A stretch of DNA of 64,000 nt from an uncultured Bacteroidota bacterium. Lineage in GTDB: Bacteria; Bacteroidota; Bacteroidia; Bacteroidales; WCHB1-69. Of this stretch, positions 3,468-57,635 are shown in pieces (the first letter of the stretch is position 1; every line of letters begins with the position of its first letter). The notes under the pieces are model-generated. The model saw nothing but the letters and a program-made list of their open reading frames with translations, did no database searches and was not told the origin of the DNA. The stretch lies in contig OW818690.1 of the NCBI GenBank assembly GCA_942493315.1, positions 2,759,275-2,823,274 on the forward strand, given 5' to 3'. Position numbers and translations under genes: made by a program.

Positions 3468-4739
3468 TTTTCCTCCACTTAAAAGTTTCAATGCTATTTC
3501 TTTAAATGCCGGATCCATTTCCGCAGATCTGCCTGCACCACTGTAAGATTGGAATAAGTATTTTATAACATCCTCATTAGCAGGATTGATAACGTAAGCT
3601 TTTTTGAACCAAATAATAGCTTCGTCATAATATTGGCTTTTCAACACATTATTAGCTTCACTTTGTTTTCTTTTTTCTGCACCTGTCAATGTAGTTGAAC
3701 TCGCAATAGCTGCATTTTGATTAATGATTGCACTTATTTTAACTAAATTTAAAAATCCTTTATATTTGATCATATCAAAATCCATAGGATATTTTTCCAA
3801 ATATAAATCTAATATTTTTTCTGTCTCCAGTTCGATAAATTGATTAAATAATGTACCAATAACTTCAGTATAAAAATTTTTATTTATAGAATCTATACCA
3901 ATTTCATTAATCATTTCGATAGATCTGGATTTAAGAGAATCAACCATTGACATCATATCATAATAGGTTAACTCAAGTAAATAATAGTTTTTCTTATAAG
4001 AGATACTGTCTGTTTTTGAAGCAATCATTCTTGTTTTTTTAATCACTTTTCCACACTCTAAAGTATCTTTATTTTGGTAGAAAAAGTTATATGCAGTATA
4101 ATAAATGGCCGGAAAATCCTTATTTTTGGACATTGCTTTTTTTAAATTCACTTGAATATTTTCTTTATCATTTAAAGCTAAATATATACGGGTTAAGTCA
4201 AAATAAACTTCAAACATATTGTCTTCAAAAAGTTTTTCATCTTTCTCTTCTCCTTTTAAAACAATACCGTAGGTTTTTTGTGCAATGAGGATATATTCAA
4301 TCGCTTTTTTATAGTTAGTATCAAGAATTGCTTGTTTTCCCATAGCATGAATAAATTCACCACAGATTTTTTGTCCAGCTTTAGGTCCATATAACCCTGA
4401 TTTAACATTTTCTTCAATTTGGTTATCTAATTCAATCGCTTTTCTAAATGCTTCATACGCAACCACAATATACTCAGGATTAGCAATTATGTAATTTGTA
4501 TCCATTTCAGCTCTTTTCATTTCAGTTAGAGCATAGAAAAAATAGGTATTCCCTTTCATCAACCATACTTGGGCATTGGCTTCATTACCGGGCATACATT
4601 TTTTATCCATCATTTTCATTGCTTTCCCATAAGCTTTTTGATTGACTACAGTGTAGTAAATATCATTCAAACAATCTTGAGAAAAGAGTGTTCCACTCAA
4701 AATAATTGTAAATACAATTAAACTTAAGAATTTTTTCAT
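3465..4739 (-). CDS. Secreted TPR-like repeat protein, function unknown
   Basis: N-terminal signal peptide (MKKFLSLIVFTIILSGTLFSQ). Helical-repeat composition. Same strand as and downstream of gyrA. Confidence 0.55.
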   Translation of the reverse strand: MKKFLSLIVFTIILSGTLFSQDCLNDIYYTVVNQKAYGKAMKMMDKKCMPGNEANAQVWLMKGNTYFFYALTEMKRAEMDTNYIIANPEYIVVAYEAFRKAIELDNQIEENVKSGLYGPKAGQKICGEFIHAMGKQAILDTNYKKAIEYILIAQKTYGIVLKGEEKDEKLFEDNMFEVYFDLTRIYLALNDKENIQVNLKKAMSKNKDFPAIYYTAYNFFYQNKDTLECGKVIKKTRMIASKTDSISYKKNYYLLELTYYDMMSMVDSLKSRSIEMINEIGIDSINKNFYTEVIGTLFNQFIELETEKILDLYLEKYPMDFDMIKYKGFLNLVKISAIINQNAAIASSTTLTGAEKRKQSEANNVLKSQYYDEAIIWFKKAYVINPANEDVIKYLFQSYSGAGRSAEMDPAFKEIALKLLSGGK

Positions 4740-4766: not shown

Positions 4767-5945
4767 TTACTTTTTTAGCGTTTCTATTTTTTTTGAAATT
4801 TCATCAAATTTTGGTGATTGTAATCTTCCATATATGGACATCAAAGTATTTAAAACGTTTAAATCATTGGGAGTTGTTTCTACAACTTTTTCAAAATATA
4901 CACGAGCTTCATTCAAATAATAGTCGTATTCTACTTTCATTTTAGCACTATTTGTCTTATCTCCAATCACTTCTAACTCATTGTATTGTTTAAATTTATC
5001 ACTGGATATGTAATAATTACATACACCCAGATTGAACAGAATATTATAATTATTGGGATTCAAAGAGTTTGCAGTTTTTAATAATTCATTAGCCCTCACA
5101 TAATTACCATCTTTAATAAAACAATTAGATGCATTAAATAGGTGATCAGCGTTTTTATAAATGGAAGCTGGTAAATTATTCAATAAATTTCTGGCAGTTA
5201 CAGTATCCTGAATTTGAAAATAATAATCCACTTCAGAAATATTGATAGAAGGATCTTTGGGAAAAATTACTTTTGCTTTATTGATAGTTGATAAAACAAG
5301 ATCAAATTTTGATTCATTTTTATACTGTTCAATAAGTCTCACGTATACATTAATATTCTGAGAACTATCTAATATAGCTTTTTCATAATAGATTTTTGCA
5401 TTTGGATTTTGATCCATTTCTAAAGCATAACCATAATAGTAGTATAATTCGCCATTTAATTTGTAGGAAGGAGTTCCCATTTCATAACACTCAGTAGCTT
5501 TCTGGAATATTGAAATAGCTTGTTTATAATCATTTGAGATCAAAACATCTACACCATAAACAAAAAGCAGTACATAAAGGGAAGGAAGTGCCTGAGCAGG
5601 TGATAGCATGCTGTAACCTTCCACATTTTTATCGAGTTCTAATGCTTTTTTAAAAGCATCGAATGCTTGCACAGGAGCATCAGGATACTTAATAAGATAT
5701 GTATTATCGGTTCTTTTTAGTTCATATTCCTGATTTGCCAGGTACATATAGATATTCCCTTTATACAAAAAAGTGTTGGCTTTAGTCGCCAATTTAGGAT
5801 CCGCCACACATTCATCGATCAACTGTTTGGCTTCAACATAATCTTGATTAGAGTAGGCATTATAAGCTTTATTTAAAGAGGGTTTTTGCGCCCAAATTAA
5901 ACAGGAACTAACCAATAATAAAAGGAATAAAATATTCTTTTTCAT
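4767..5945 (-). CDS. Secreted tetratricopeptide repeat protein
   Basis: Signal peptide followed by repeated TPR-like AxxxY/F..A....P patterns. Confidence 0.6.
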   Translation of the reverse strand: MKKNILFLLLLVSSCLIWAQKPSLNKAYNAYSNQDYVEAKQLIDECVADPKLATKANTFLYKGNIYMYLANQEYELKRTDNTYLIKYPDAPVQAFDAFKKALELDKNVEGYSMLSPAQALPSLYVLLFVYGVDVLISNDYKQAISIFQKATECYEMGTPSYKLNGELYYYYGYALEMDQNPNAKIYYEKAILDSSQNINVYVRLIEQYKNESKFDLVLSTINKAKVIFPKDPSINISEVDYYFQIQDTVTARNLLNNLPASIYKNADHLFNASNCFIKDGNYVRANELLKTANSLNPNNYNILFNLGVCNYYISSDKFKQYNELEVIGDKTNSAKMKVEYDYYLNEARVYFEKVVETTPNDLNVLNTLMSIYGRLQSPKFDEISKKIETLKK

Positions 5946-5950
5946 GTATA

Positions 5951-8485
5951 TTAATTTTCATTTGAAGTATTCGTTTCGTTATCATTAACGATATTTTCTT
6001 CAGAATATTCTACATTTTCAACATCAATATCATCGATTTCATCTTCATCTCTTGGAACTTGTGTAACTGCAGCGATAATATCATCATTTTTAAGGTTAAT
6101 TAATCTAACCCCCTGAGTAGCACGACCCATCACTCTTAATTGATCTACATGTAAACGGATAGCGATTCCGGAACGGTTGATAATCATTAAATCATCAGCA
6201 TCAGTTACATTTTTAACAGAGATCAAACCACCTGTTTTTTCAGTAATACTGATCGTCTTAACCCCTTTTCCACCACGGTTGGTAGCTCTGTAATCTTCTA
6301 ATGGTGAGCGTTTACCATAACCATTTTCAGAAACAACCAAAATATCGTACTCTGGACTATCCACACAAATCATACCCACTACATAGTCTTGATCATGAGC
6401 TAATGTAACCCCTTTCACTCCTGATGCATTTCTACCCATTGGTCTAACTGTTTTTTCATTAAATCTGACTGCTTTTCCTGAATTCAGTGCCATCATGATT
6501 TCACTTTCACCATTGGTCAACTTAGCTTCTAATAAATGGTCATCTTCTCTGATTGTGATCGCAATAATACCGTTTTGACGTGGACGGGAATACGCTTCCA
6601 ATGAAGTTTTTTTAATAATCCCTTTTTCAGAACATAAGATGATATAATTATTGTTGATATAATCAGGATCTGATAGATTATTTACATTGATAACCGATTT
6701 AATTTTATCAGAAGGTTCAATATTGATCAAATTTTGGATAGCTCTACCTTTTGATAATTTATTACCTTCCGGAACTTCGTAAACTCTTAACCAGAAACAT
6801 TTTCCCTTTTCAGTAAAGAATAACAAGAAGTTATGATTGGTAGCAATATATAAATGTTCAATAAAATCTTCATCTCTTGAGTTACTCCCTTTTGAGCCTT
6901 TTCCGCCCCTATTTTGAACTTTATATTCTGTTAAAGATGTTCTTTTGATATAGCCCAAATGTGAAATAGTGATCACAACTTCCGTATCGGCAATGGTATC
7001 TTCTATTCTAAAGTCAGAAGCTGCAAATTCAATTTTGGAACGTCTTTCGTCACCATATTTTTGTTTTACTTCCATGACTTCATCTTTAAGAATCTGCATT
7101 CTTAAACCTTCATCAGATAAAATTTGTTGTAAGTATGTGATTTTCTTTAAAAGTTCATCGTATTCTGCTTGTAGTCTCTCTTTTTCAAGTCCAACCAACT
7201 GACGAAGTCTCATTTCAACGATAGCAGCAGCTTGTTTTTCAGAGAATTGCCATTTTACAATCAGGGTTTCTACTGCTTCAGCAACTGTTTTAGAGGATCT
7301 GATAACAGCAATTATTTCATCGATAATATCAAGAGCTTTGAGCAAACCTTCCAAAATGTGAGCTCTTTCCAATGCTTTATTCAAATCATATTCAGATCTT
7401 CTAACCACCACCTGATGGCGATGTTTCACAAATTCGACAATAATATCTCTTAAGTTTAAAGACATTGGACGTCCGTTAACCAAAGCCACATTATTAACAC
7501 TGTAAGAAGATTGGAGAGAAGTATATTGGTACAATTTGTTCAAAACCACATTAGCAACGGCATCTCTTTTCAGTTCGTAGATAATTTTTGTACCGGTTTT
7601 TTCGCTGGATAGGTTTTCAATATTAGAGATTCCATCAATTTTATCCTCACGAATCAATTCCACAGTTCTGCGAATCATTTCAGAAGGGTTAACCATGTAA
7701 GGAAGGGAATTCACAACAATGGTTGATCTGTTACCATCCTCTTCAATATTCACTTCACCACGCATCACAATACGACCTCTACCGGTTTCAAATGCTTCGC
7801 GCACCCCTTCATATCCATAAATTGAACAACCTGTTGGAAAATCGGGAGCTTTGATAAACTCCATTAGTTCAGCGACAGTAATATCTTTATTATCAATATA
7901 GGCAATAAGACCATCACAAACTTCAGAAAGGTTATGAGGGGGCATATTAGTAGCCATACCAACAGCGATACCGGAAGAACCATTAATCAAAAGATTAGGG
8001 ATTTTAGCAGGTAAAACGTTAGGTTCTTGTAAGGAATCATCAAAGTTATTTTCGAAATCCACTGTATTTTTTTCGATATCCTCCAACATCTCCTCTGCTA
8101 TTCTCATCATACGGGCTTCTGTATAACGCATCGCCGCAGGACTATCGCCGTCGGGAGAGCCAAAGTTACCTTGTCCATCAACAAATGGGTAACGCAATGA
8201 CCAGTTTTGGGCCATTCTCACCATAGCATCATAAACAGCAGTATCTCCGTGTGGGTGGTATTTACCTAAAACATCTCCAACAATTCTGGCTGATTTTTTA
8301 TAAGGTTTTCCGGAAACAATCCCCATATCCCACATGGCATATAATATTCTCCTATGTACCGGTTTAAATCCATCACGCACATCAGGTAAAGCTCTTGAGA
8401 CAATTACAGACATGGAATAGTCAATGTAAGCCGATTTCATTTGGTTTTCGATATTTACCTGTACAATTTTTTCTCCTTCAAACAT
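5951..8485 (-). CDS. gyrA: DNA gyrase subunit A
   Basis: Canonical GyrA N-terminus ([39 protein letters not shown] active-site Tyr region). C-terminal beta-pinwheel repeats and an acidic tail. Confidence 0.97.
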
Positions 8486-8601
8486 TTTTTTCGAAAAGTT
8501 TAGTTAAATTAAAGTTATGATTTTCAAATGGTTATATTATTTTTAAATAATTTACAAATATACAAAATTTTTCCAAACGAAAAGCTTAAAATCTATTAAA
8601 T

Positions 8602-8702
8602 AATTAGCAAATGTGATAATTAGCAAATGTGATAATTTGCTAATTTGCTAATTTACTAATTTGCTAATTTGCTAATTTGCTAATTCACTAATTTGCTAAT
8701 TC
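8602..8702. repeat. Octamer tandem array (TGCTAATT x ~9) preceded by 2 copies of a 16-mer containing its reverse complement
   Basis: Read directly. AATTAGCAAATGTGAT occurs twice, followed by TGCTAATT units. Lies 117-217 nt upstream of the gyrA start on the minus strand. Confidence 0.9.
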
Positions 8703-8711
8703 AAAATGATC

Positions 8712-9086
8712 TTATTTTGAAGCGATCGTTTCGATTTCAACTAAAACGCCCAATGGAAGTTCTCTAACTGCAAAAGCGGCTCTTGCAGGTGGATTTTCAG
8801 CATAATATTTGCCATAAACTTCGTTCATTGCTTTAAAATTAGCCATATCACTCAATAAACAAGTAGATTTAACAACATCCTGATAGGTATAACCTGCTTC
8901 ATGAAGGATGGCACCAATATTTTTCATCACTTGTTCGGTTTGAGCTTCGATCCCTTCAGGAACGGTAGTTGTTTCAGGGTTGATTGGAATTTGTCCGGAG
9001 ATAAATAACATTCCGTTCACTTCAATTGCTTGACTATAAGGGCCAATCGCTTTAGGGGCATTGTCAGTTTTAATAATTTTTTTCAT
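8712..9086 (-). CDS. ridA: RidA/YjgF family reactive-intermediate deaminase
   Basis: 124 aa with PKAIGPYSQA...PARAAFAVRELPLGVLVEIE, typical of the RidA family. Confidence 0.9.
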   Translation of the reverse strand: MKKIIKTDNAPKAIGPYSQAIEVNGMLFISGQIPINPETTTVPEGIEAQTEQVMKNIGAILHEAGYTYQDVVKSTCLLSDMANFKAMNEVYGKYYAENPPARAAFAVRELPLGVLVEIETIASK

Positions 9087-9174
9087 ATTATTTTTTATTT
9101 AGATTGAGTTCAAAAAAGTTTGCAAAATTATCAAAAAAAAGTGTGATTTTGATTATTTTTTTAATTTTTTATTT

Positions 9175-37162: not shown

Positions 37163-37200
37163 TTAGAGGGGGTTTGGATTTTGATTTGGGGGATCTTTAT

Positions 37201-38758
37201 CCGACGGAGCACTCATTGGGTAATCTAATAAATGATGGGTAAAAAATTTAGTAAATTGTTTATTCATTGAAAGATATGAAATCTACTGATTTTGCATCCT
37301 TGTTTCACCAACCTTTTAATAGATTACCTAAATGAAAACCCAAATTTGAAATCTATCACCCATTTGACAACTCCAAAATCAAACCAAATTCTAAATTTAG
37401 CTCCTCTAAAATTAATCCAAATCTTCCTAAAATCAATCAGACTTTAGCTACAAACAAACCAATATTACCATTTTTAAATTAAATGGTTTTTTAATAACTT
37501 ATAAGATTATTTATTGTTTATACAAACATTTTGCAATGTTTGTAGTTTTCTTTCCCATTGTTGATTGAGATCGATTTTTCAATCATAGCAGATGAGGGAT
37601 CTAATCTGAATTTGATCTGTTCAAAGATCATATACCAATACAGATAGTTTTGCAGATAACTGGAGGATACTCCATGAAACCGATCCATAAATGCAATTAA
37701 CTTCAGGTATCTGCTTTCAATCGTTTTTGTATCATAATATTGGTTACATCCTTTCACTTTCTGATCCTTTTTTCTAATAAAGTAGCTGATCTTTCTCTTT
37801 CCTGCAAATTGTTTAAGAATCGGATGATCACTCAAACATAGTTTTTTTACTTTGTTTAGTTTTTTTCCAAGATGGTTCTTTAATTCTTCTTCTTGTAATG
37901 CACCTTGTTGAATAATTGTGATTTCAAAATGGGATATTCTGTCACCAATAGCCACTAAAGAAAGAGGTTTGTATTCCCCATTTCGGATACTTTCTGCTTT
38001 TCTATTACAGGCAGGATTCGTTATCTTTCCTTTTTGTCCTATTTGTTTAGCTTTGGCTCCTTGACCCTTTCGGGAGAAAGGTTCTGAAATATCAATCATT
38101 TCCGTTATTCCTCGATATTTATCCGGGACATATTCACCCAGAGAGGATATAATTTTATGTCTCCAATCAAATGAAGTTTGGTTAGAGATATCCAATGCAT
38201 CAGAACAATCTTTGATTCCTGTTCCTGATAACATCAACAAGAAGTAGGATTGTAGTTTCTCCTTCTTTTTGATGTAGGAAATTGTAGTACCTGAGAACTC
38301 ATTAAAGCTTCTGCCACAACTCTTACAAAGGAAATATTGAACTCCTTTTTTCTTACCGTTTAGAATAAAATGTGATTTTCCACATTTAGGACAAACTCTG
38401 ACTTGCTTCTCACTGATATACTTACATATAGAAGCCAAAGGATTAACAAAACTCTTTTTTTGGGGGGTAACTTCAGCAGATGGTGAGGGTTGAACTGAAG
38501 TAGGGTCAATGGTTTGCTTAGAGGATTGGGGTAGATCATTCATAGTATTTTGAGTTTAGTGAGTACTTGATATTGATGCAAATATAAACAAAAAAATGAA
38601 CGAATTGCAACAAAAATAAAAAAAAATCTGCTAATCTAATAAAAGATTGGTGCTATTGTGATGCAAAATCACAAGACTATAAAAAAGTGTTTAAAATCAA
38701 AAATATACCGAAAAACTCACCCATCTTTTAATAGATTAGCCAATTAAAGCTCCGTCGG
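37201..38758 (-). mobile_element. IS-like unit: IS1595-like transposase gene bracketed by inverted AT-hairpin modules of about 130 bp (M6 37201-37328, M7 38630-38758)
   Basis: The outermost 10 bp are perfectly inverted (CCGACGGAGC ... GCTCCGTCGG), followed by an extended imperfect inverted repeat through ATTGG-TAATCTA-TAAA-GATGGGT. No target-site duplication was recognised. Confidence 0.55.
37518..38543 (-). CDS. IS1595-family-like DDE transposase with an N-terminal zinc ribbon
   Basis: CPKCG...x18...CKSCG zinc ribbon. C-terminal HGVSSSYLQNYLYWYMIFE resembles the IS1595 (ISXO2-like) conserved end. A TATATTTG -7 box lies on the minus strand at 38579-38586. Confidence 0.6.
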   Translation of the reverse strand: MNDLPQSSKQTIDPTSVQPSPSAEVTPQKKSFVNPLASICKYISEKQVRVCPKCGKSHFILNGKKKGVQYFLCKSCGRSFNEFSGTTISYIKKKEKLQSYFLLMLSGTGIKDCSDALDISNQTSFDWRHKIISSLGEYVPDKYRGITEMIDISEPFSRKGQGAKAKQIGQKGKITNPACNRKAESIRNGEYKPLSLVAIGDRISHFEITIIQQGALQEEELKNHLGKKLNKVKKLCLSDHPILKQFAGKRKISYFIRKKDQKVKGCNQYYDTKTIESRYLKLIAFMDRFHGVSSSYLQNYLYWYMIFEQIKFRLDPSSAMIEKSISINNGKENYKHCKMFV

Positions 38759-40818: not shown

Positions 40819-40857
40819 ATTCTTTTTTTAGAGTATGCAAAAATACATTTTTTTTTG

Positions 40858-40865
40858 TAATTTTG
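40858..40865 (+). promoter_or_regulatory. -7 promoter box TAATTTTG driving the riboswitch leader
   Basis: TAnnTTTG located 3 nt before the proposed P1 stem of the riboswitch. Confidence 0.45.
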
Positions 40866-40868
40866 CCA

Positions 40869-41050
40869 TGATTTTCAACAAGGGAATCGGGTGAAATTCC
40901 TGAACAGTTCCCGCTGCTGTAAGTCTCATTAAGTTCTTAGGATTTAGCCACTGTTTTTATTCCAAAAATGGGAAGGCCCTCAAGAGAGACAAGTCAGAAA
41001 ACCTATTGTAAATCAAGCATTAAGGCTTCGGGAAAAAGCTGAAACGAACC
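40869..41050 (+). promoter_or_regulatory. Cobalamin (B12) riboswitch
   Basis: AAGGGAATCGGGTGAAATTCCTGAACAGTTCCCGCTGCTGTAAG matches the conserved GGGAA..GGTGAAA.TCC...CCCGC.GCTGTAA core. Also GCCACTG...GGGAAGGC, a B12-box-like AAGTCAGAAAACCT, and a P1 candidate TGATTT (40869-40874) / AAATCA (41010-41015). Confidence 0.75.
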
Positions 41051-41119
41051 GTTTGTTCCAACTCTTTCCGATTCCAAATTTATTCATCTAACCAATCCAT
41101 TTTGGTTACTAAAAACGAA

Positions 41120-42196
41120 ATGATGAAACGGGAAAATTTTATCAAAAGATTACAAAAATTGATCTTTTTATGTTTTGGAATTGTACTTTTAGCAGTTTCT
41201 TGTGAACCACCTATTGATCCTCCCATTAATCAGGGAGAAAGTGGTATTTATATCCTTAATGAAGGGGGTTTTAATATGAATAACAGCTCTTTAAGTTTCT
41301 TTAATTTTAAAGATCACTCAGTAATTGAAAATATTTTTCTGCAATCTAATAACCGCGGATTAGGGGATGTGGCAAACGATATGAAACAATATGGTAATAA
41401 AATCTACATTGTTGTGAATAATTCCGAAATTATTGAAATTATAAATCTCAAAACTGCTAAATCAATAAAGCAAATCTCACTTACAGGAAAACAACCTAGA
41501 AATATAACTTTTTTTGAAAATAAAGCTTATGTTAGTTGTTTTGATGGTACAGTTGTAAGAATTGACACAACAACTCTTCTAATAGATGGAACCATAACCG
41601 TTGGTTCAAACCCTGAAGGGATCTGTGTCGCCAATAATAAACTATATGTGGCTAATTCAGGAGGATTAAGTTCACCCATCACTTCCAATACAGTTTCTGT
41701 TGTTGATTTGAATAGCTATACAGAATTGAAAAGAATACCGGTTGCAATTGGCCCCAGGATACTTAAAACTGATCAATATGGAGATATTTATGTGTCATGT
41801 ACTGGAAACTATGGGAATATTCCTGCGTCATTTCATCGAATCAATACAATTACAGATGAAACTGTTGAAAATTTTAATTTAGAAGTTCATAATTTTACTA
41901 TCCAGGGAAATTTTGCTTATTTATATTCCTATGATTTTACTGATCAATCTAAATGGTTTAAAGTAATGGATATTTCTACTGAAAACATTGTAAAAGATAA
42001 TTTCATTTCTGATGGTACGCAAATTACTATTCCTTATGGGATAGCAATTGATCCGGTAACCAATTATATTTATATCACTGATGCAGGTGATTATGTGTCA
42101 ACCGGTGATGTATTTTGTTTTAATCAGAACGGAGTTCTTCAGTATCAATTCGAAGCTGGTATTATACCTAATGGAAGTATGGTTTTTAAAAGATAA
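41120..42196 (+). CDS. Surface lipoprotein with a YncE-like beta-propeller (DUF5074-like)
   Basis: Lipobox LLAVSC. Repeated blades of about 40 aa (G..P..I......YV.N.....V..ID). ATG 41120 is preferred to TTG 41102. Confidence 0.6.
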   Translation: MMKRENFIKRLQKLIFLCFGIVLLAVSCEPPIDPPINQGESGIYILNEGGFNMNNSSLSFFNFKDHSVIENIFLQSNNRGLGDVANDMKQYGNKIYIVVNNSEIIEIINLKTAKSIKQISLTGKQPRNITFFENKAYVSCFDGTVVRIDTTTLLIDGTITVGSNPEGICVANNKLYVANSGGLSSPITSNTVSVVDLNSYTELKRIPVAIGPRILKTDQYGDIYVSCTGNYGNIPASFHRINTITDETVENFNLEVHNFTIQGNFAYLYSYDFTDQSKWFKVMDISTENIVKDNFISDGTQITIPYGIAIDPVTNYIYITDAGDYVSTGDVFCFNQNGVLQYQFEAGIIPNGSMVFKR

Positions 42197-43435: not shown

Positions 43436-43563
43436 TAAAACTCTAAGAACTGAATAATAACGTATGAAAATTTAAGAAATTGTATGCAATATTATTTTTT
43501 TAAATTCAATAAAATTATTGAATTTTGGGATTTATAAATATCAAAATTATTATTTAAATTAAT

Positions 43564-43700
43564 CGACAGAGCTATTTACCCCTATTCTAATAAATGATGG
43601 ATGAAAATTTTGTATCTATTTTATATTCAAACACATACAAAATTTCATTTTTTCTATCGAAACAGTATCAACCTTTTATTAGAATATAAAATATTGACGC
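43564..43700 (+). repeat. AT-rich hairpin module, copy M1
   Basis: CGACAGAGC...ATTCTAATAAATGATGG...CAACCTTTTATTAGAATATAAAATATTGACGCA. Near-identical to M2. Confidence 0.85.
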
Positions 43701-43791
43701 ACTTCGGTACATTTTTTTGTATTTTTCGTCATGAGTTCCGGATTTAAAAGTCGAGTAATTTTTCAATTTTGAACATTTGCAAATTATTCCC

Positions 43792-43799
43792 TATTTTTG
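43792..43799 (+). promoter_or_regulatory. -7 promoter box TATTTTTG upstream of the helicase gene
   Basis: TAnnTTTG followed by CA. It overlaps the TTG used as the start in the ORF track, which argues for a later start codon. Confidence 0.4.
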
Positions 43800-43847
43800 C
43801 ATTCCAAATTGCCACTAATTCATCATATTTCATCAAATTTAACTTTT

Positions 43848-46001
43848 GTGACTTCTTCTTTAAAATCAAATCTTAGTAATTTAAACACCCAACAACTAGA
43901 GGCTGTTATCAGTGACCATAAAAGACTTCTCGTATTAGCTGGTGCCGGTTCAGGTAAAACTAAAACACTTTTACAAAAAATTATCTATTTGATGGAAGAA
44001 AAAGGTGTTAGCCCTTCTCAAATACTTGCTATCACTTATACCAAAAATGCTACTAATGAAATGATTGATCGTCTCATTATCTCAGCTGATTCAACCGGAA
44101 ATTACGAAAAATTACTTTTGGATAGAAATCGTACTAAAGAGGAAAAAGAAAAAGAACGATATCTGCAACAAAAAAAATATAAATGGATTGATAACTTGAC
44201 TGTTAAAACATTCCATTCTTTTTGTTATTCGGTTCTAAGAAATTATGGTGTCAACGAATTCGATAATCAATTTAGAATTGTTGGGGATGAAAAGAAAGAA
44301 GAATCTGATGAATTAAATAAACATGTTGCTCCTGAAACGGCATTTGAGATTTTTCATAAACTATTGATTCATCAATGTGAAGATCATGAATACCTTTTAA
44401 AATTAAAAAGGCATATCCTTGATTATATGATTGATAAAATTCATATAAATCCAAAAAAGTCTGGATTTTTTGAATATGATGGTAAATTCTTTACTACACT
44501 CGACGGGATAAAAGTTAGATCAAAATCTGAACAATTTATTGCCGATTGGTTTTACCGACACTCTATCAAATACGAATATGAGCCTCTTTTGAACATTAAA
44601 GATTTCTCATTTCACCCAGACTTTTTTATTCCAGCTGCCAATCTTTATATTGAACATGTTAGTGATAAAAGTTATTCAACCAAAAATAAAGAGGAACAAT
44701 TTCGAAAAGGGAATCTATTGTTGGTGAAGACTTTTGAAAACATGACTACTGATTCAGCTCTTTTCAATCATACGCTAGATAATATTGTCAAGAATAGGTT
44801 ACCGGAACATTATCATGAGACTGTTGGATTAAATTTTAAAGAAGAATTTAATGGGTATCATGAAGATGTTAAAGATTTTGTTCGTCAAATCATGCGAATC
44901 ACCGATATGATCAAGGTTGAAAATATTGATATTGAAACAGTTTCTAAAAATGGACGAAATGACCAGCATGAAAGAGTTCGGCAATTTTATGAATTAGCGA
45001 TTCCAATCGTCAAAAAATATATTGAATATTGTACAGATAAATCCTTTTTAGATTTTAATGATCTGATTTCCAGAACTACATCTTTGTTTCAAAATCAAAA
45101 AGACATAGCGAATAAGTTCAGATCAAAATACAATTATATACTTGTGGATGAATTTCAGGATGTCAATAATTTACAAGTAGAGTTAATTCAATTGTTATTG
45201 ACAGAACAATCTCAGTTATTTTGTGTTGGTGATGACTGGCAAAGTATTTATGGTTTTAGAGGCTCCAATGTAAGTTATATTGTTGAATTTGAAAAACACT
45301 TTAAAGAAGCTAAAACGATAAAACTAAACCTAAATTACCGAAGCACTCAAAACATTGTGGGGGCAAGTAATGAGGTAATAAAACACAATAAATTCAAAGT
45401 GGAGAAAGAGATTTATGCATCAAAAAAATCGGAACACAAAATTGTGGTTTATGCTGGAAATAATGAAGATGAAAACCTTCAATTTTGCTTAGATAAAGTC
45501 AAAAAACTTCTCAAAGATGGCATCTCTAGTGACGATATTTTCTTTCTATACCGAAGAAGTAAAATGTACGCACCTTACTATTATAAATTCAGAAATGAAG
45601 GGATCAAAGTTCAAGGAAAAACAATTCATGCAGCTAAAGGGTTGGAAGCAAAAGTAGTCTTTATCATCGGCTTAACCGATGGGAATGGCGGGTTTCCGGA
45701 TATTTGGTTAGAAGATCGGATATTCCAGATGATCAAAAAATCAAACCATGATTTATTAATGGAAGAAGAGCGAAGACTTTTTTATGTTGCTATTACCCGA
45801 GCAAAAGAAAAGTTGTTTCTTATCACTGAAAAAGGATTTGAATCCAGCTTTTTAAAAGAGATTCCTGAAGTTTATACAGTAAGAACATCACAATACTTTA
45901 AAGCTGAAACTGAAAATGTTAAAACATGCCAAAATTGTTTAAGTCAGTTAGAAAATTTGTGGGTAGTTTGTCCTTATTGTGGAGAAAAAATTTGCGATTA
46001 A
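43848..46001 (+). CDS. UvrD/Rep-like SF1 helicase with an inserted PD-(D/E)xK-like module and a C-terminal zinc ribbon
   Basis: Walker A AGAGSGKT, TFHSFC, Walker B/motif II VDEFQDVN, GDDWQSIYGFRG, NYRS, and VAITRAKEKL (motif VI). The insert is RSKSEQFIADWFYRHSIKYEYEP...FHPDFFIP...LYIEH. C-terminal CQNC...CPYCG. The start is uncertain: GTG 43848, TTG 43809 or TTG 43797. Confidence 0.8.
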   Translation: MTSSLKSNLSNLNTQQLEAVISDHKRLLVLAGAGSGKTKTLLQKIIYLMEEKGVSPSQILAITYTKNATNEMIDRLIISADSTGNYEKLLLDRNRTKEEKEKERYLQQKKYKWIDNLTVKTFHSFCYSVLRNYGVNEFDNQFRIVGDEKKEESDELNKHVAPETAFEIFHKLLIHQCEDHEYLLKLKRHILDYMIDKIHINPKKSGFFEYDGKFFTTLDGIKVRSKSEQFIADWFYRHSIKYEYEPLLNIKDFSFHPDFFIPAANLYIEHVSDKSYSTKNKEEQFRKGNLLLVKTFENMTTDSALFNHTLDNIVKNRLPEHYHETVGLNFKEEFNGYHEDVKDFVRQIMRITDMIKVENIDIETVSKNGRNDQHERVRQFYELAIPIVKKYIEYCTDKSFLDFNDLISRTTSLFQNQKDIANKFRSKYNYILVDEFQDVNNLQVELIQLLLTEQSQLFCVGDDWQSIYGFRGSNVSYIVEFEKHFKEAKTIKLNLNYRSTQNIVGASNEVIKHNKFKVEKEIYASKKSEHKIVVYAGNNEDENLQFCLDKVKKLLKDGISSDDIFFLYRRSKMYAPYYYKFRNEGIKVQGKTIHAAKGLEAKVVFIIGLTDGNGGFPDIWLEDRIFQMIKKSNHDLLMEEERRLFYVAITRAKEKLFLITEKGFESSFLKEIPEVYTVRTSQYFKAETENVKTCQNCLSQLENLWVVCPYCGEKICD

Positions 46002-46006
46002 ATACG

Positions 46007-46144
46007 CGACGAAGCACTACACCCCTATTCCAATAAATGATGGGTAAAAATATTGTATCTATTTTATATTCAAACACATACAAAATTTAATTTTTTCAAT
46101 CGAAACAGTATCAACCTTTTATTAGAATATAAAATATTAACGCA
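46007..46144 (+). repeat. AT-rich hairpin module, copy M2
   Basis: Direct repeat of M1 beginning 6 nt after the helicase stop. Confidence 0.85.
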
Positions 46145-46360
46145 AATTGGATAATTTTGAGTTCAGATCCAGAAAGTTACAATTTCAACAAATCATAATT
46201 ATTCTTAATTTTTATATTTAATATTTATTATTTAGAATAATGTACTAAATTTGCATCATTAATAATCTTCAAAACCTACTTTTGAAGATTAATAGATTAA
46301 TTAAAATCTATTTCTTAATTTATTCTGAATTAACAGCTGAAATTTTAAAAAAAATATAAA

Positions 46361-47512: not shown

Positions 47513-47563
47513 CACATTAACACTTTAGCATATTACTATTCACTATTAGTTATTCACTCTATA

Positions 47564-47770
47564 GGGCATTCCCCTTTGGCTGCGCTCAACCAAACCCCCA
47601 CCCCAACGAACAGAAACACCGTCGCTTGCCAAAGGGTCGGTCTCCGGCCTGTACTCCTCGCAGTTCCGCCAAGTGTTGCATCGGCCCGGCAGGAGCTCCT
47701 CCGTCGCTCTGCCGGTCTCGGCACCACTAAGCGTCCCTGCTTGCGGGGTACCTGGCCTCCGCCCTAATGC
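47564..47770 (+). repeat. GC-rich structured element, copy A
   Basis: GGGCATTCC...CCGCCCTAATGC. Stems CCTTTGGC/GCCAAAGG and CCGGCAG/CTGCCGG. Track ORF 47576-47767 lies entirely within it and is judged spurious. Confidence 0.85.
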
Positions 47771-47815
47771 AATTTCAGTAAGTGGTTAATATTTCAATTC
47801 GCCCCAAAACTTTAT

Positions 47816-47927
47816 ATTCTATTTAATGATGGGTAAAAATATTGTATCTATTTTATATTCAAATACATACAAAATATCATTTTTTCAATCGAAACACTAA
47901 CAACCTTTTATTGGAATATGAAATATT
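47816..47927 (+). repeat. AT-rich hairpin module, copy M3
   Basis: ATTCTATTTAATGATGGGTAAAAATATTGTATC...CAACCTTTTATTGGAAT. Lies 45 nt 3' of GC-rich copy A. Confidence 0.8.
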
Positions 47928-48052
47928 GGGATTTAATGGCAAAATTGGAGCATTTTTTTATTACTATTTTGTCAATAACTGTTATTTGTCTTGTCTCAAA
48001 TAAATATTTCAATATTTTATTTATTTTTGTAAACAAATATAAAAATTGATTT

Positions 48053-50242: not shown

Positions 50243-50355
50243 ATGTTATTTAACTGTATATAACTGTAAATGTGTTCAAATTTTCACTATTATTTGTCAT
50301 ATTTTATTAGAACATTATCACATTAATTAAGGTATTCCGTTTTGCCGCCCCACAT

Positions 50356-50458
50356 ATTCTAATAAATGACGGGAGAAAATAATTTTATTTATATCATTTA
50401 CAAATACTTACAAAATTTCATTTTTTCAATCAAAACAACAACCTGCTTTTATAAGAAT
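50356..50458 (+). repeat. AT-rich hairpin module, copy M4 (preceded by a remnant of about 20 bp resembling the fused ends of the GC-rich element)
   Basis: ATTCTAATAAATGACGGGAG...CAACCTGCTTTTATAAGAAT. Upstream GGTATTCCGTTTTGCCGCCCCA (50332-50352) resembles the GGGCATTCC and CCGCCC ends. Confidence 0.7.
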
Positions 50459-50596
50459 ATCTAAAACCTGTGGATTTGTATCGAAGGGGTAAGAGTTTTG
50501 CTAATATTCAAATTTTCAATTGTTATTTCAATACGTTTATATATATTTGTGCCAAAAATCAATGTACCAGAATAAGTAAAATAAACTCCTAATTTC

Positions 50597-54387: not shown

Positions 54388-54567
54388 GGGCATTCCGGCA
54401 CCATCCCACCCACTTTCCTACCCTGCTGCCGTCGGTCTCCGGCCTGTACTCCTCGCAGTACCGCCAAGTGTTGCATCGGCCCGGCAGTAGCTCCCAAGGT
54501 CGCTCTGCCGGTCTCGTGCACCACTAGGCGTCCCTGCTTGCGGGGTACCTGACCTCCGCCCTAATGC
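54388..54567 (+). repeat. GC-rich structured element, copy B
   Basis: GGGCATTCCGGCA...TGCCGTCGGTCTCCGGCCTGTACTCCTCGCAG...CCGGCAG-TAGCTCCCAAGGTCGCT-CTGCCGG...CCGCCCTAATGC. Confidence 0.85.
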
Positions 54568-54700: not shown

Positions 54701-54930
54701 GGAACGTTATATTTGTAGCAAATCAACCTCCGACAACTCCAACCCGCTCCGTAGGAGCGTTATATTTGTAGCCAATCAACCTCCGACAAAACCACTTCGC
54801 TCCAGCGGAGCGTTATATTTGTAGCCAAACAAATACCCGACAAAACCACTTCGCTCCAGCGGAGCGTTATATTTGTAGGCAAACGATTACCCGACAAAAC
54901 GATCCCGCTCCAGCGGAGCGTTATATTTGT
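54701..54930 (-). repeat. REP-like 53-54 bp hairpin units, ~4 copies, inverted relative to the downstream array
   Basis: Four CGCTCC-N3/4-GGAGCG hairpins, each followed by TTATATTTGTAG. The reverse complement matches the CAAATATAACGCTCCGCTGGAGCG units at 57170-57600. Confidence 0.9.
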
Positions 54931-55005: not shown

Positions 55006-55476
55006 ATGGCTAACACTTACTCTCAATGCTATTTTCACCTTGTTTTTTCTCCTAACATTTCAAAATCATTAATTGATACATCTTGGAGCAATAATCTAGA
55101 AATTTTCATTACATCAATTGTTCAGGAAAATGTACATAAAATGATTGCCATTAAATGTATGCCTGATCATGTTCATATCTTTTTTGGATATAATTTGAAT
55201 CAAAAAATACCTGATTTGGTTAATGTCATTAAAATGACTTCTTCAAAATGGTTGAAAGAACAAAATTTTTGTAAAAACTCATTTAATTGGCAAAATGGGT
55301 ATGGTGCTTTTACTCATGTAAAATCTTCTGTTAATGATGTTTATAATTACATTATGAATCAAGAAAATCACCATAAAAAAATAAGTTTTAAAGAAGAATT
55401 TTTATCATTTTTAAAAAGAAATGAAATTGATTATCACGATGATTATTTATTCCATTTTTTAGACCCTAAGTTTTAA
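55006..55476 (+). CDS. IS200/IS605-type Y1 (HUH) transposase, REP-associated (RAYT-like)
   Basis: HUH motif in MPDHVHIFF. WQNGYGAFT. C-terminal catalytic Tyr helix SSVNDVYNYIMNQENHH (Y-I-x-N-Q). 156 aa. No tnpB partner. Flanked by inverted hairpin repeats. Confidence 0.85.
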   Translation: MANTYSQCYFHLVFSPNISKSLIDTSWSNNLEIFITSIVQENVHKMIAIKCMPDHVHIFFGYNLNQKIPDLVNVIKMTSSKWLKEQNFCKNSFNWQNGYGAFTHVKSSVNDVYNYIMNQENHHKKISFKEEFLSFLKRNEIDYHDDYLFHFLDPKF

Positions 55477-55485
55477 TTCCAAAAA

Positions 55486-57635
55486 CCAATTTAACGCTCC
55501 GATGGAGCGGGTTCGTTTTGTCCGTTATTTGTTTGCTACCAATTTAACGCTCCGATGGAGCGGGTTCGTTTTGTCCGTTATTTGTTTGCTACCAATTTAA
55601 CGCTCCGCTGGAGCGGGTTCGTGTCGCCGGTTATTCGTTTGCTACCAATATAACGCTCCGCTGGAGCGGGTTCGTGTCGTCCGTTATTTGTTTGCTACCA
55701 ATATAACGCTCCGATGGAGCGGGTTCGTTTTGTCCGTTATTCGTTCGCTACAAATATAACGCTCCGCTGGAGCGGGTTCGTGTCGACCGTTATTCGTTCG
55801 CTACCAATTTAACGCTCCGCTGGAGCGGGTTCGTTTTGTCCGTTATTTGTTTGCTACCAATTTAACGCTCCGATGGAGCGGGTTCGTTTCGCCTGTTATT
55901 TGTTTGCTACCAATTTAACGCTCCGCTGGAGCGGGTTCGTTTTGTCCGTTATTTGTTTGCTACCAATTTAACGCTCCGTTGGAGCGGGTTCGTGTCGCCG
56001 GTTATTCGTTTGCTACCAATATAACGCTCCGCTGGAGCGGGTTCGTGTCGCCGGTTATTCGTTCGCTACCAATTTAACGCTCCGCTGGAGCGGGTTCGTT
56101 TCGCCGGTTATTCGTTCGCTACCAATTTAACGCTCCGCTGGAGCGGGTTCGTTTTGTCCGTTATTTGTTTGCTACCAATTTAACGCTCCGTTGGAGCGGG
56201 TTCGTGTCGCCGGTTATTCGTTCGCTACCAATATAACGCTCCGCTGGAGCGGGTTCGTTTTGTCCGTTATTCGTTCGCTACAAATTTAACGCTCCGATGG
56301 AGCGGGTTCGTTTTGTCCGTTATTTGTTTGCTACCAATTTAACGCTCCGCTGGAGCGGGTTCGTGTCGCCGGTTATTCGTTTGCTACCAATTTAACGCTC
56401 CGATGGAGCGGGTTCGTTTTGTCCGTTATTTGTTTGCTACCAATTTAACGCTCCGATGGAGCGGGTTCGTTTCGCCTGTTATTTGTTTGCTACCAATTTA
56501 ACGCTCCGCTGGAGCGGGTTCGTTTCGCCGGTTATTCGTTCGCTACCAATTTAACGCTCCGCTGGAGCGGGTTCGTTTCGCCGGTTATTCGTTCGCTACC
56601 AATTTAACGCTCCGCTGGAGCGGGTTCGTTTTGTCCGTTATTTGTTTGCTACCAATTTAACGCTCCGATGGAGCGGGTTCGTTTTGTCCGTTATTTGTTT
56701 GCTACCAATTTAACGCTCCGATGGAGCGGGTTCGTGTCGCCGGTTATTCGTTTGCTACCAATTTAACGCTCAGATGGAGCGGGTTCGTGTCGCCGGTTAT
56801 TCGTTCGCTACCAATTTAACGCTCAGATGGAGCGGGTTCGTTTCGCCGGTTATTCGTTTGCTACCAATATAACGCTCCGCTGGAGCGGGTTCGTGTCGTC
56901 CGTTATTTGTTTGCTACCAATTTAACGCTCCGCTGGAGCGGGTTCGTGTCGTCCGTTATTTGTTTGCTACCAATTTAACGCTCAGATGGAGCGGGTTCGT
57001 TTTGTCCGTTATTCGTTCGTTACCAATATAACGCTCAGATGGAGCGGGTTCGTTTTGTTCGTTATTCGTTCGCTACCAATTTAACGCTCCGCTGGAGCGG
57101 GTTCGTTTTGTCCGTTATTCGTTCGCTACCAATTTAACGCTCCGCTGGAGCGGGTTCGTTTTGTCCGTTATTCGTTCGCTACAAATATAACGCTCCGCTG
57201 GAGCGGGTTCGTTTCGCAGGTTATTCGTTTGCTACCAATATAACGCTCCGCTGGAGCGGGTTCGTGTCGTCCGTTATTCGTTTGCTACAAATATAACGCT
57301 CCGCTGGAGCGAGTATGTTTTGTCCGTTATTCGTTTGCTACAAATATAACGCTCCGCTGGAGCGAGTATGTTTTGTCCGTTATTCGTTTGCTACAAATAT
57401 AACGCTCCGCTTGAGCGGGTTCGTGTCGTCCGTTATTCGTTTGCTACAAATATAACGCTCCGCTGGAGCGAGTATGTTTTGTCCGTTATTCGTTTGCTAC
57501 AAATATAACGCTCCGCTGGAGCGAGTATGTTTTGTCCGTTATTCGTTTGCTACAAATATAACGCTCCGCTGGAGCGAGTATGTTTTGTCCGTTATTCGTT
57601 TGCTACAAATATAACGCTCCGATATAGAGGGTTAC
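55486..57635 (+). repeat. Tandem array of ~40 REP-like 53-bp hairpin units
   Basis: The period is exactly 53 bp by counting (ACCAATTTAACGCTCCGCTGGAGCGGGTTCGTTTTGTCCGTTATTTGTTTGCT). Each unit has a CGCTCC-N4-GGAGCG hairpin. There are several unit subtypes. The last 7 or so units include five copies of a distinct GAGCGAGTATG variant, interrupted by one GGGTTCGTG-type unit. Confidence 0.97.

Follow-up and report, generated by a model that had tools for sequence, protein, structure and literature searches.

A horizontally spread Bacteroidota helicase with a T7 endonuclease I/Bax1-type nuclease fold inside domain 1B

Introduction

Helicase-nuclease fusions play a central part in DNA repair (RecBCD, AddAB, Dna2) as well as in several recently discovered anti-phage genes. 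In AddAB, RecBCD and AdnAB, a UvrD-like superfamily 1A (SF1A) motor and a PD-(D/E)xK nuclease are combined in one chain, the nuclease being a C-terminal domain of the RecB family and the enzymes acting as heteromers; Nhi, Hna, Hhe and GajB represent other families of helicase plus nuclease, with another domain order. Junctions and bubbles are the substrates of T7 endonuclease I and Bax1, both of them structure-specific nucleases. Here, we investigated a helicase gene on the + strand of contig OW818690.1 of an uncultured Bacteroidota bacterium (WCHB1-69, assembly GCA_942493315.1), within a stretch of 64,000 nt (positions 2,759,275 to 2,823,274), hereafter called the window. The original prediction, made from the letters of this stretch alone, was a UvrD-like helicase with an embedded nuclease-like module and a terminal zinc ribbon, bracketed by direct repeats in an accessory region and possibly serving immunity or the maintenance of a mobile element. 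We found that a single polypeptide indeed joins an intact UvrD-like motor, a restriction-endonuclease-fold module and a zinc ribbon, and that its gene is a chromosomal accessory gene, spread horizontally as a minimal cassette without a recombinase of its own.

The likeness to Nhi, Hna, Hhe and GajB lies in one gene (or a helicase gene) combining or cooperating with a nuclease, in the horizontal spread and in the presence of some copies near other defence genes. With AddAB, RecBCD and AdnAB the protein shares the motor and the nuclease in one chain (fold matches at E of 1e-20 to 1e-14); however, its nuclease is of the endonuclease I type, lies within domain 1B and has no partner subunit. The same nuclease class is coupled to a helicase in XPB-Bax1, but in the window protein the module sits inside an SF1 helicase, instead of forming a domain-swapped homodimer or a subunit of its own beside an SF2 helicase. 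A helicase-nuclease fusion as such is of a known kind; for an endonuclease-I-type nuclease inside domain 1B of an SF1A motor devoid of domain 2B, travelling as a naked cassette, we found no description. Full-text literature searches returned no paper on this architecture or on a pair of RNase H and a UvrD-like helicase, and neither Pfam nor NCBIfam nor PADLOC holds a model for the nuclease of this family. The design places a junction-resolvase-type nuclease in the fork-facing domain of a motor from which the regulatory 2B domain is absent and, if active, it would constitute a compact ATP-driven structure-specific nuclease.

The motor is an intact SF1A ATPase without domain 2B

Residues are numbered along the 734-residue open reading frame (ORF) unless stated otherwise; counted from the GTG start codon, Walker A at residues 48-55 becomes 31-38. 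All the helicase motifs quoted in the original prediction (AGAGSGKT, TFHSFC, VDEFQDVN, GDDWQSIYGFRG, NYRS, VAITRAKEKL) were found, and the SF1A motifs (Walker A, Ia, II DExQD, III, IV, V and VI) all stand in order and are invariant among relatives. The Pfam profile UvrD-helicase (PF00580, 271 positions) matches residues 29-503 with E = 2.9e-65 and 221 bits (cut-off 23), and UvrD_C (PF13361) matches with 7e-28 and 98.5 bits (cut-off 25.6). The nearest solved structures are PcrA/UvrD, both by sequence (1pjr, E~1e-53 in phmmer) and by fold (2is4, 2e-25 in Foldseek), the latter with the full-length AlphaFold 2 (AF2) model, which has a predicted local distance difference test score (pLDDT) of 77.5 and a predicted template modelling score (pTM) of 0.71. 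The unusual gap of about 400 residues between Walker A and motif II, pointed out before, is real: 397 residues separate Lys54 from Asp451, as compared with about 186 in PcrA, and domain 1B is greatly expanded (Table 1). In the alignment to 1pjr, residues 587-601 occupy the place of PcrA 360-555, and therefore domain 2B is absent. The motor is an intact UvrD/helicase-IV-like SF1A ATPase lacking this domain and, judging by homology, it would translocate 3'->5' on single-stranded DNA (ssDNA) and unwind duplexes in an ATP-dependent manner.

The closest namesake is DNA helicase IV (HelD), also an SF1A UvrD-like motor without 2B, under whose name relatives of the window protein appear in several sources. 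The C-terminal half (~330 residues) is collinear with positions 353-675 of the 684-position NCBIfam helicase IV model NF008276. However, a good match is confined to these positions and the cut-off of the model is missed (254 bits against 543), the Pfam scan finds no Helicase_IV_N (PF12462) in the window protein, and the ~240 extra residues of 1B with the nuclease fold, as well as the terminal zinc ribbon, set the protein apart. Moreover, the window gene is mobile and patchy, whereas a HelD-type gene is fixed in the chromosome. UvrD, PcrA and Rep share with it all seven helicase motifs and the 1A/2A fold, but not the absence of 2B or the nuclease-enlarged 1B, and their equivalog cut-offs are widely missed (pcrA 299 against 911, uvrD 258 against 1144, rep 232 against 951). 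The scores for recB (162 against 696) and addA (161 against 708) also lie below cut-off, and the C-terminus holds a zinc ribbon and no RecB-family nuclease.

This ribbon had been described as CQNC and CPYCG separated by 12 residues; the four-cysteine motif is present and invariant, but the spacing is x10. It gives a weak match to Pfam Zn_ribbon_3 (E=0.016), and related clades match Zn_ribbon_15 or Zn_ribbon_Top1. At one related locus (L084), the complete helicase gene (6043-8199) is followed by an ORF of 276 aa (8295-9125), whose last ~40 residues duplicate the zinc-ribbon C-terminus of the helicase (VVEKIGTCAKCFSQLDNKLYVFCPYCGEKIG); the ribbon therefore behaves as a portable module.

Domain 1B carries a nuclease fold of the T7 endonuclease I/Bax1 class

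Pfam gave no match to the insert alone. An exhaustive search of residues 160-400 against 1.84 billion representatives returned 581 matches at E<=1e-3. About 25 clusters of helicase length contain the whole insert at 29-62% identity, and at their C-termini carry a zinc ribbon, RQC, HRDC, HTH_40, MutS_I or Zn_ribbon_Top1. Hundreds of stand-alone proteins of 130-300 aa (e.g., P0171-P0270), outside any Pfam family, contain the core signature only, VRSKSE..IA..L....YEYE....PDFYLP...YIE(H/Y)xG, with the endings YIEHFG/YWG; many of them have a Cys-rich N-terminal region.

A profile was built from 51 diverse core sequences (26-69% identity, small stand-alone proteins included). Searched against the PDB, it matched T7 endonuclease I (2pfj, 5.8e-5; 1m0d, 6.7e-5) and Bax1 (6p66, 6e-3), and the alignment places E245, D275 and E286 on E20, D55 and E65 of the T7 enzyme. 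V240, E245, Y261, E262, D275 and E286 are invariant in all 51 sequences, and S242, P274, F276 and K298 are conserved in more than 90%. Pfam Phage_endo_I and DUF790 weakly match eight and four of the 51 family members, respectively. Both the full-length AF2 model and a model of the domain alone (pLDDT 80) show the alpha-beta-beta-beta-alpha-beta core, with elements in the order H-E-E-E-E-H-E. When the domain was compared with known structures by Foldseek, almost exclusively PD-(D/E)xK nucleases were retrieved, at modest E-values of 2e-3 to 0.1: RAP-domain mitoribosomal proteins, PvuRts1I, AbaSI, Bax1, T7 endonuclease I, DrdV, R2 endonuclease, Cas4 and McrC.

The nuclease-like fold proposed earlier is thus supported by profile search, AF2 and Foldseek alike, which sets the insert apart from an ordinary 1B/2B accessory domain. 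The segment on which the proposal had been based, RSKSEQFIADWFYRHSIKYEYEP...FHPDFFIP...LYIEH, is present and near-invariant in relatives, but its spacings had been misread: YEYEP is followed by 8 residues, not 14, before FHPDF, and FFIP by 3, not 4, before LYIEH. Like T7 endonuclease I and Bax1, the insert combines the RS..E ... YEYE ... PDF ... (V/I)E signature with the PD-(D/E)xK fold. It is a nuclease-fold module of their class with an invariant acidic triad, and from sequence and models it is predicted to cleave.

The gene is spread horizontally as a minimal cassette

Relatives of the protein are 68-97% identical across Bacteroidota orders and Ignavibacteria. The best 120 database matches (77-90% identity) come from Chitinophagales, Flavobacteriales, Sphingobacteriales, Cytophagales, Bacteroidales and Saprospiraceae; Ignavibacteria were added by 80 loci from species-representative genomes, and a profile search for divergent members mostly returned the 75-80% identical clade again. 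The helicase-nuclease is under very strong purifying selection. The protein tree disagrees with taxonomy. The proteins of Chryseobacterium salviniae and Flavobacterium cyanobacteriorum are 95.5% identical and those of Mariniflexile and strain UKL13-3 96.3%, the Flavobacterium amniphilum protein is nearest to a Cyclobacteriaceae one (89%), and the copy from Ignavibacteria to one from Cytophagaceae (85.8%). DNA similarity between taxa (78-92%) covers the gene or gene pair with 65-90 nt upstream and 20-60 nt downstream, and nothing beyond; between the window and its 90% relative L121 it begins 89 nt ahead of the start codon, at 43759. An exact look-up of the two proteins encoded on either side of the window gene, made in search of an empty site, gave no record. 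The 138 immediate neighbours at 72 loci fall into 115 Pfam families, none of which occurs more than three times, and clustering of flanking ORFs revealed RNase HI as the single recurrent neighbour. Since the tree contradicts taxonomy, neighbours are not conserved and DNA similarity is limited to the cassette, we conclude that the gene is horizontally mobile and accessory; its homologues are not core genes with conserved synteny. Its evolution is unusual, as the gene is abundant in Bacteroidota and conserved about like a translation factor, yet moves freely between orders.

Among 72,556 plasmids and 50,697 phages no relative exceeds 60% identity, and 2.9 million viral contigs yielded at best a segment of 41% identity, which weakens the mobile-element maintenance reading of the original prediction. 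Proteobacterial plasmids carry distant collinear homologues of 930-980 aa (25-27% identity) that combine Helicase_IV_N, a long 1B insert and Zn_ribbon_Top1, and adjoin AbiEii, DUF262 proteins, or an AAA ATPase with a second UvrD-like gene. On contig JBDSAP010000260.1, two apparent copies (L030/L031) proved to be the arms of a perfectly palindromic contig of 48.8 kb, so they represent an assembly artefact and not a duplication.

The cassette carries its own putative promoter and travels either alone or with the upstream RNase HI gene. The latter encodes a 210-aa enzyme (Pfam Cauli_VI + RNase_H), in which a hybrid-binding domain forms the N-terminus. Of the 75 informative loci, 26 have it ~40 nt ahead of the helicase gene and on the same strand (complete in 19, partial in 7), and nucleotide similarity of the gene pair between taxa shows that the two are transferred together. 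The RNase HI family, too, shows 70-90% conservation across orders. It is missing from 65% of loci, and no trace of it was found in the window. PADLOC gave no match to it. Short 3' remnants of RNase HI lie upstream of the helicase in several solo loci (L013, L014, L019, L029, L030, L042, L050), and in L081 the RNase HI gene (3787-3891, 5423-5953) is split by an insertion of ~1.5 kb; this interruption and the remnants suggest repeated loss of the partner gene. Four RNase HI members were looked up, and two of them precede the helicase. At L124, RNase HI precedes a SMEK_N protein beside transposases, and at L123 it precedes an uncharacterised 298-aa gene in a HigB / MNT-HepT / PemK island.

At some loci the cassette has recognisable ends, GTT-N4-GT(C/T)A 50-80 nt ahead of the first gene and AC-N4-AAC 5-13 nt past the stop codon of the helicase gene. 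Both were present in 6 of 84 loci (~7%), and in five of these six (L008, L009, L032, L046, L067) the N4 are perfectly complementary, forming complementary 9-mers with three different N4 (ATGC, AGCG and GGCG); L001, L007, L016 and L034 are near-matches. The motifs are not detectable in the window. They resemble integron core/inverse-core sites or, alternatively, mRNA 5'/3' pairing; they fit the GTTRRRY / RYYYAAC consensus inexactly, and neither attC nor an integrase was identified. Inverted repeats of at least 9 nt were also sought at all cassettes, where they occurred in 9% as compared with 4% of permuted locus pairs; with so small a difference they were rejected as a general feature, only the GTT-N4-GT / AC-N4-AAC subset standing out. 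Terminal inverted repeats around the window copy were rejected, as 82% of shuffles score at least as well in local alignment.

The gene starts at a GTG codon behind a putative promoter

The ORF spans 43797..46001 (+) and, as stated earlier, has no in-frame ATG upstream of Walker A. GTG 43848, one of the two start codons proposed then, is borne out by the closest relative, P0001 (90% identity), whose N-terminus MTSSLKS begins at the aligned codon, and by 81 related loci, where the aligned start is very often TTG (L004, L011-L014, L019, L024, L027, L029, L032, L034, L042, L047) or GTG (L026, L036, L069). A putative promoter of the Bacteroidetes type was read from the sequence by eye, using the established consensus for its -33 and -7 boxes; it is contained in the stretch conserved with L121. 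The first codon of the ORF, TTG 43797, falls within the -7 box TAttTTTG. Since relatives place the start at GTG 43848 and TTG 43797 lies inside the -7 box, the product has 717 aa, and the coordinates of the original prediction are correct.

Table 1. Coordinates of the features, given as window positions unless a locus is named.
Feature	Position	Strand	Details
Helicase-nuclease coding sequence	43848..46001	+	717 aa; start GTG 43848, stop TAA 45999-46001
Putative Bacteroidetes-type promoter	43768..43799	+	-33 TTTG 43768-43771; 20-nt spacer; -7 TAttTTTG 43792-43799
Walker A / motif I, AGAGSGKT	43938..43961	+	residues 48-55; invariant in relatives
Expanded domain 1B	44244..44972	+	ORF residues 150-392 replace ~60 PcrA residues (102-163), ~240 extra; from phmmer against 1pjr, Pfam span and AF2
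Nuclease core, PD-(D/E)xK, T7 endonuclease I / Bax1 type	44469..44801	+	alpha-beta-beta-beta-alpha-beta
Conserved core residues (profile columns)	E245 44529-44531; Y261-E262; D275 44619-44621; E286 44652-44654; K298 44688-44690	+	
Motif II, DEFQD	45147..45161	+	residues 451-455
Zinc ribbon, CQNC-x10-CPYC	45927..45980	+	C711, C714, C725, C728; all invariant in relatives
RNase HI gene, examples at related loci	L001 7333-7965; L004 7328-7960; L122 5001-5633		
AT-rich dispersed repeat, upstream copy	43560..43714	+	beyond the region shared with L121; no part of the cassette
AT-rich dispersed repeat, downstream copy	46003..46157	+	begins 2 nt after the stop codon
AT-rich dispersed repeat, five other copies (nhmmer)	47797-47945; 50339-50479; 38760-38631(-); 9507-9375(-); 37198-37330		
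GC-rich repeat, ~226 nt	47550-47775 (+); 54431-54567 (+); 38981-38772 (-)		later copies 93% and 79% identical to the first
Inverted 53-nt arrays with 156-aa ORF	54701-54930, 55006-55476, 55485-57621		

A role in nucleic-acid conflict is favoured

From architecture and context, we favour a role in nucleic-acid conflict, i.e., defence against phages, plasmids or other invading replicons, over host genome maintenance, and assign to it a probability of roughly 0.45. The preference is based on how the gene is transferred, on the minority of neighbours from defence and toxin-antitoxin systems, on the exchangeable gene downstream of RNase HI and on the conserved weak start codons. Like Nhi, Hna or Hhe, the gene would work on its own. 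The motor would load on ssDNA at a branched structure (a fork, flap, D-loop or R-loop) and move 3'->5' with ATP. In UvrD/PcrA structures domain 1B faces the single-strand/duplex junction, and therefore the nuclease would cut DNA at or beside the junction being unwound, while the zinc ribbon would add DNA binding. Where RNase HI accompanies it, the pair may process RNA:DNA hybrids, R-loops or RNA-primed replication intermediates.

As to the neighbours of relatives, strong PADLOC matches occur in ~10-14 of the 138, a raw count with no background rate, so that enrichment is not claimed. They comprise type I and IIG restriction enzymes, a specificity subunit, Avs4, AbiU, SoFic, PDC-S01/S04/S06/S13, PDC-M21B/M36A and mad3, to which Pfam adds ParE, Fic, McrBC, HTH_3 and IS200-type transposases. 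Defence genes, for which a check had been suggested earlier, thus adjoin a noticeable minority, but ordinary metabolic or envelope genes make up most of the immediate neighbours.

Several observations weigh against a role in conflict, among them this predominance of ordinary neighbours. No defence or mobility genes surround the window copy; its neighbours encode a trypsin-like and a BNR/Sortilin-like protein of the type IX secretion system (T9SS), a DUF5074 protein, an OmpA-family protein, an S41 peptidase and a histidine kinase. With T9SS cargo, outer-membrane proteins and peptidases around the gene, the accessory region of the original prediction is not apparent in the window. The PADLOC check yielded generic GajB and RT-associated-helicase matches on the motor, but no specific full-length model of PADLOC-DB v2 (e.g., Nhi, Hhe) was matched. 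Full-length conservation of 70-97% is atypical for defence genes, which usually diversify, and the HRDC, RQC, HTH_40 or MutS_I domains of related clades are typical of genome maintenance. Finally, the canonical lysine of the E-x-K motif, Lys67 in T7 endonuclease I, is missing: the window protein has Val288 at the aligned position and stand-alone relatives have Phe or Trp. Relocated lysines occur in PD-(D/E)xK enzymes, and catalysis would here need such a residue, K298 or K243.

The strongest competitor, although we consider it somewhat unlikely, is a genome-maintenance enzyme, a helicase-IV-like helicase-nuclease that would resolve R-loops, stalled forks and recombination intermediates of the host, its transfer being incidental and RNase HI its natural co-worker. 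Extreme sequence conservation and the relatives with HRDC, RQC, HTH_40 or MutS_I speak for it, and very strong purifying selection fits contact with conserved host machinery. It is further favoured by the co-transferred RNase HI with its hybrid-binding domain, by the collinearity of the motor with helicase IV together with Helicase_IV_N in the distant plasmid homologues, by the action of T7 endonuclease I and Bax1 on junctions and bubbles, and by a umuD gene nearby on one plasmid. However, the patchy distribution, the gene tree and the unconserved synteny argue against maintenance, as do the restriction, Abi, toxin-antitoxin and transposase genes adjoining a noticeable minority of loci. RNase HI, moreover, also pairs with unrelated downstream genes, once in a toxin-antitoxin island, and is missing from most loci, including the window. 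If the protein were an ordinary repair helicase, the value of the finding would be smaller, namely a corrected annotation and start codon.

A different question is whether the embedded fold cuts at all. It could be catalytically dead and serve only to target a pure helicase, through structure-specific recognition of DNA or through interaction with proteins, which we regard as unlikely. The hydrophobic residue at the E-x-K lysine position throughout the family and the weak Foldseek E-values agree with this idea. However, inactive nuclease domains usually lose their metal ligands, whereas E245, D275 and E286 are invariant even among stand-alone proteins, and K298 could stand in for the missing lysine.

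Going beyond the role in conflict itself, one may propose a more specific and distinctly doubtful picture, in which helicase-nuclease and RNase HI form a hitherto undescribed immunity module widespread in Bacteroidota that would destroy RNA:DNA hybrids or branched intermediates of invading replicons by coupled unwinding and cutting, carried on a promoter-containing cassette of 2.3-3 kb with integron-like complementary ends. If true, this would be a mechanism of cassette exchange new to the phylum. The cassette offers a possible handle on single-gene exchange in Bacteroidota and on the role of RNase HI with a hybrid-binding domain.

It is improbable that the cassette is selfish, the protein promoting its own horizontal spread or its retention, either through addiction or through cleavage of empty sites as in homing. 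The minimal transferred unit without a recombinase, the many unrelated insertion sites, the truncated RNase HI remnants upstream of several solo copies and the complementary 9-mers would fit; however, no target-site pattern and no pair of empty and filled sites was found, few loci keep both end motifs, T7-endonuclease-I-like nucleases are structure-specific and not sequence-specific, and phage, plasmid and viral-contig collections hold no close relatives. A GajB-like helicase component of a multi-gene defence system (Gabija or a reverse-transcriptase system) is very improbable, since the top 25 PADLOC matches, although all RTasHel or GajB models (E~1e-65), cover only the generic motor in 3-4 fragments that skip the insert, neither a GajA OLD-family ATPase/TOPRIM nuclease nor a reverse transcriptase adjoins the gene in the window, and neither partner recurs in 72 loci, where RNase HI is the sole conserved one.

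Repeats and other elements of the window

The gene had been reported to be flanked by near-identical direct repeats of 137 bp. Two copies are real, but they share 124 nt at 94% identity (43578-43701 and 46021-46144) or ~155 nt at 86%. They belong to an AT-rich repeat of ~150 nt with terminal dyad symmetry (TATTCTAATAAA ... TTTATTAGAATA), of which nhmmer finds seven copies in the window, always intergenic; four of them separate consecutive + strand genes at 43.5-50.6 kb. Among 84 related loci it occurs only in L006 (an 89% relative), as a diverged copy just after the stop codon. Being bracketed is therefore not a property of the helicase gene, and the repeats were ruled out as cassette boundaries. 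The repeat is a dispersed, lineage-specific family, and it may be of the kind of miniature inverted-repeat transposable elements (MITEs) or of REPINs, i.e., paired repetitive extragenic palindromic (REP) sequences. A structured RNA was rejected (fold z-score -0.17 against shuffles, no Rfam match there). In other taxa an element of ~45 nt is conserved after the stop codon; its nhmmer profile finds nothing in the window at E<=10, and thus the flanking repeat was rejected as its homologue.

Another repeat is GC-rich in a genome of ~32% GC and folds better than its shuffles (z = -3.4 on the + strand, -2.6 on the - strand); it gave no Rfam match even at E<=1 and could be a non-coding RNA or a mobile element. 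Further downstream, a 53-nt unit (ACCAATTTAACGCTCCGCTGGAGCGGGTTCGTTTCGTCCGTTATTCGTTTGCT, with the hairpin CGCTCCGnTGGAGCG) is repeated in 40.3 tandem copies at 92% identity, with ~4.3 reverse-complement copies on the other side of an ORF of 156 aa. The latter matches Y1 transposases of the IS200/IS605 type (ISHp608 TnpA and others) at E~1e-5. A CRISPR was rejected, as there are no spacers; array and ORF resemble a REP-associated transposase (RAYT) whose REP array is exceptionally long. The array explains the GC content of 0.46-0.50 and the AT skew of -0.40 at 56-58 kb.

Upstream of the helicase gene, a cobalamin riboswitch (Rfam RF00174, 84 bits) at 40841-41024 (+) directly precedes the DUF5074/NHL beta-propeller gene at 41102-42196, which probably encodes a B12-capture surface protein.

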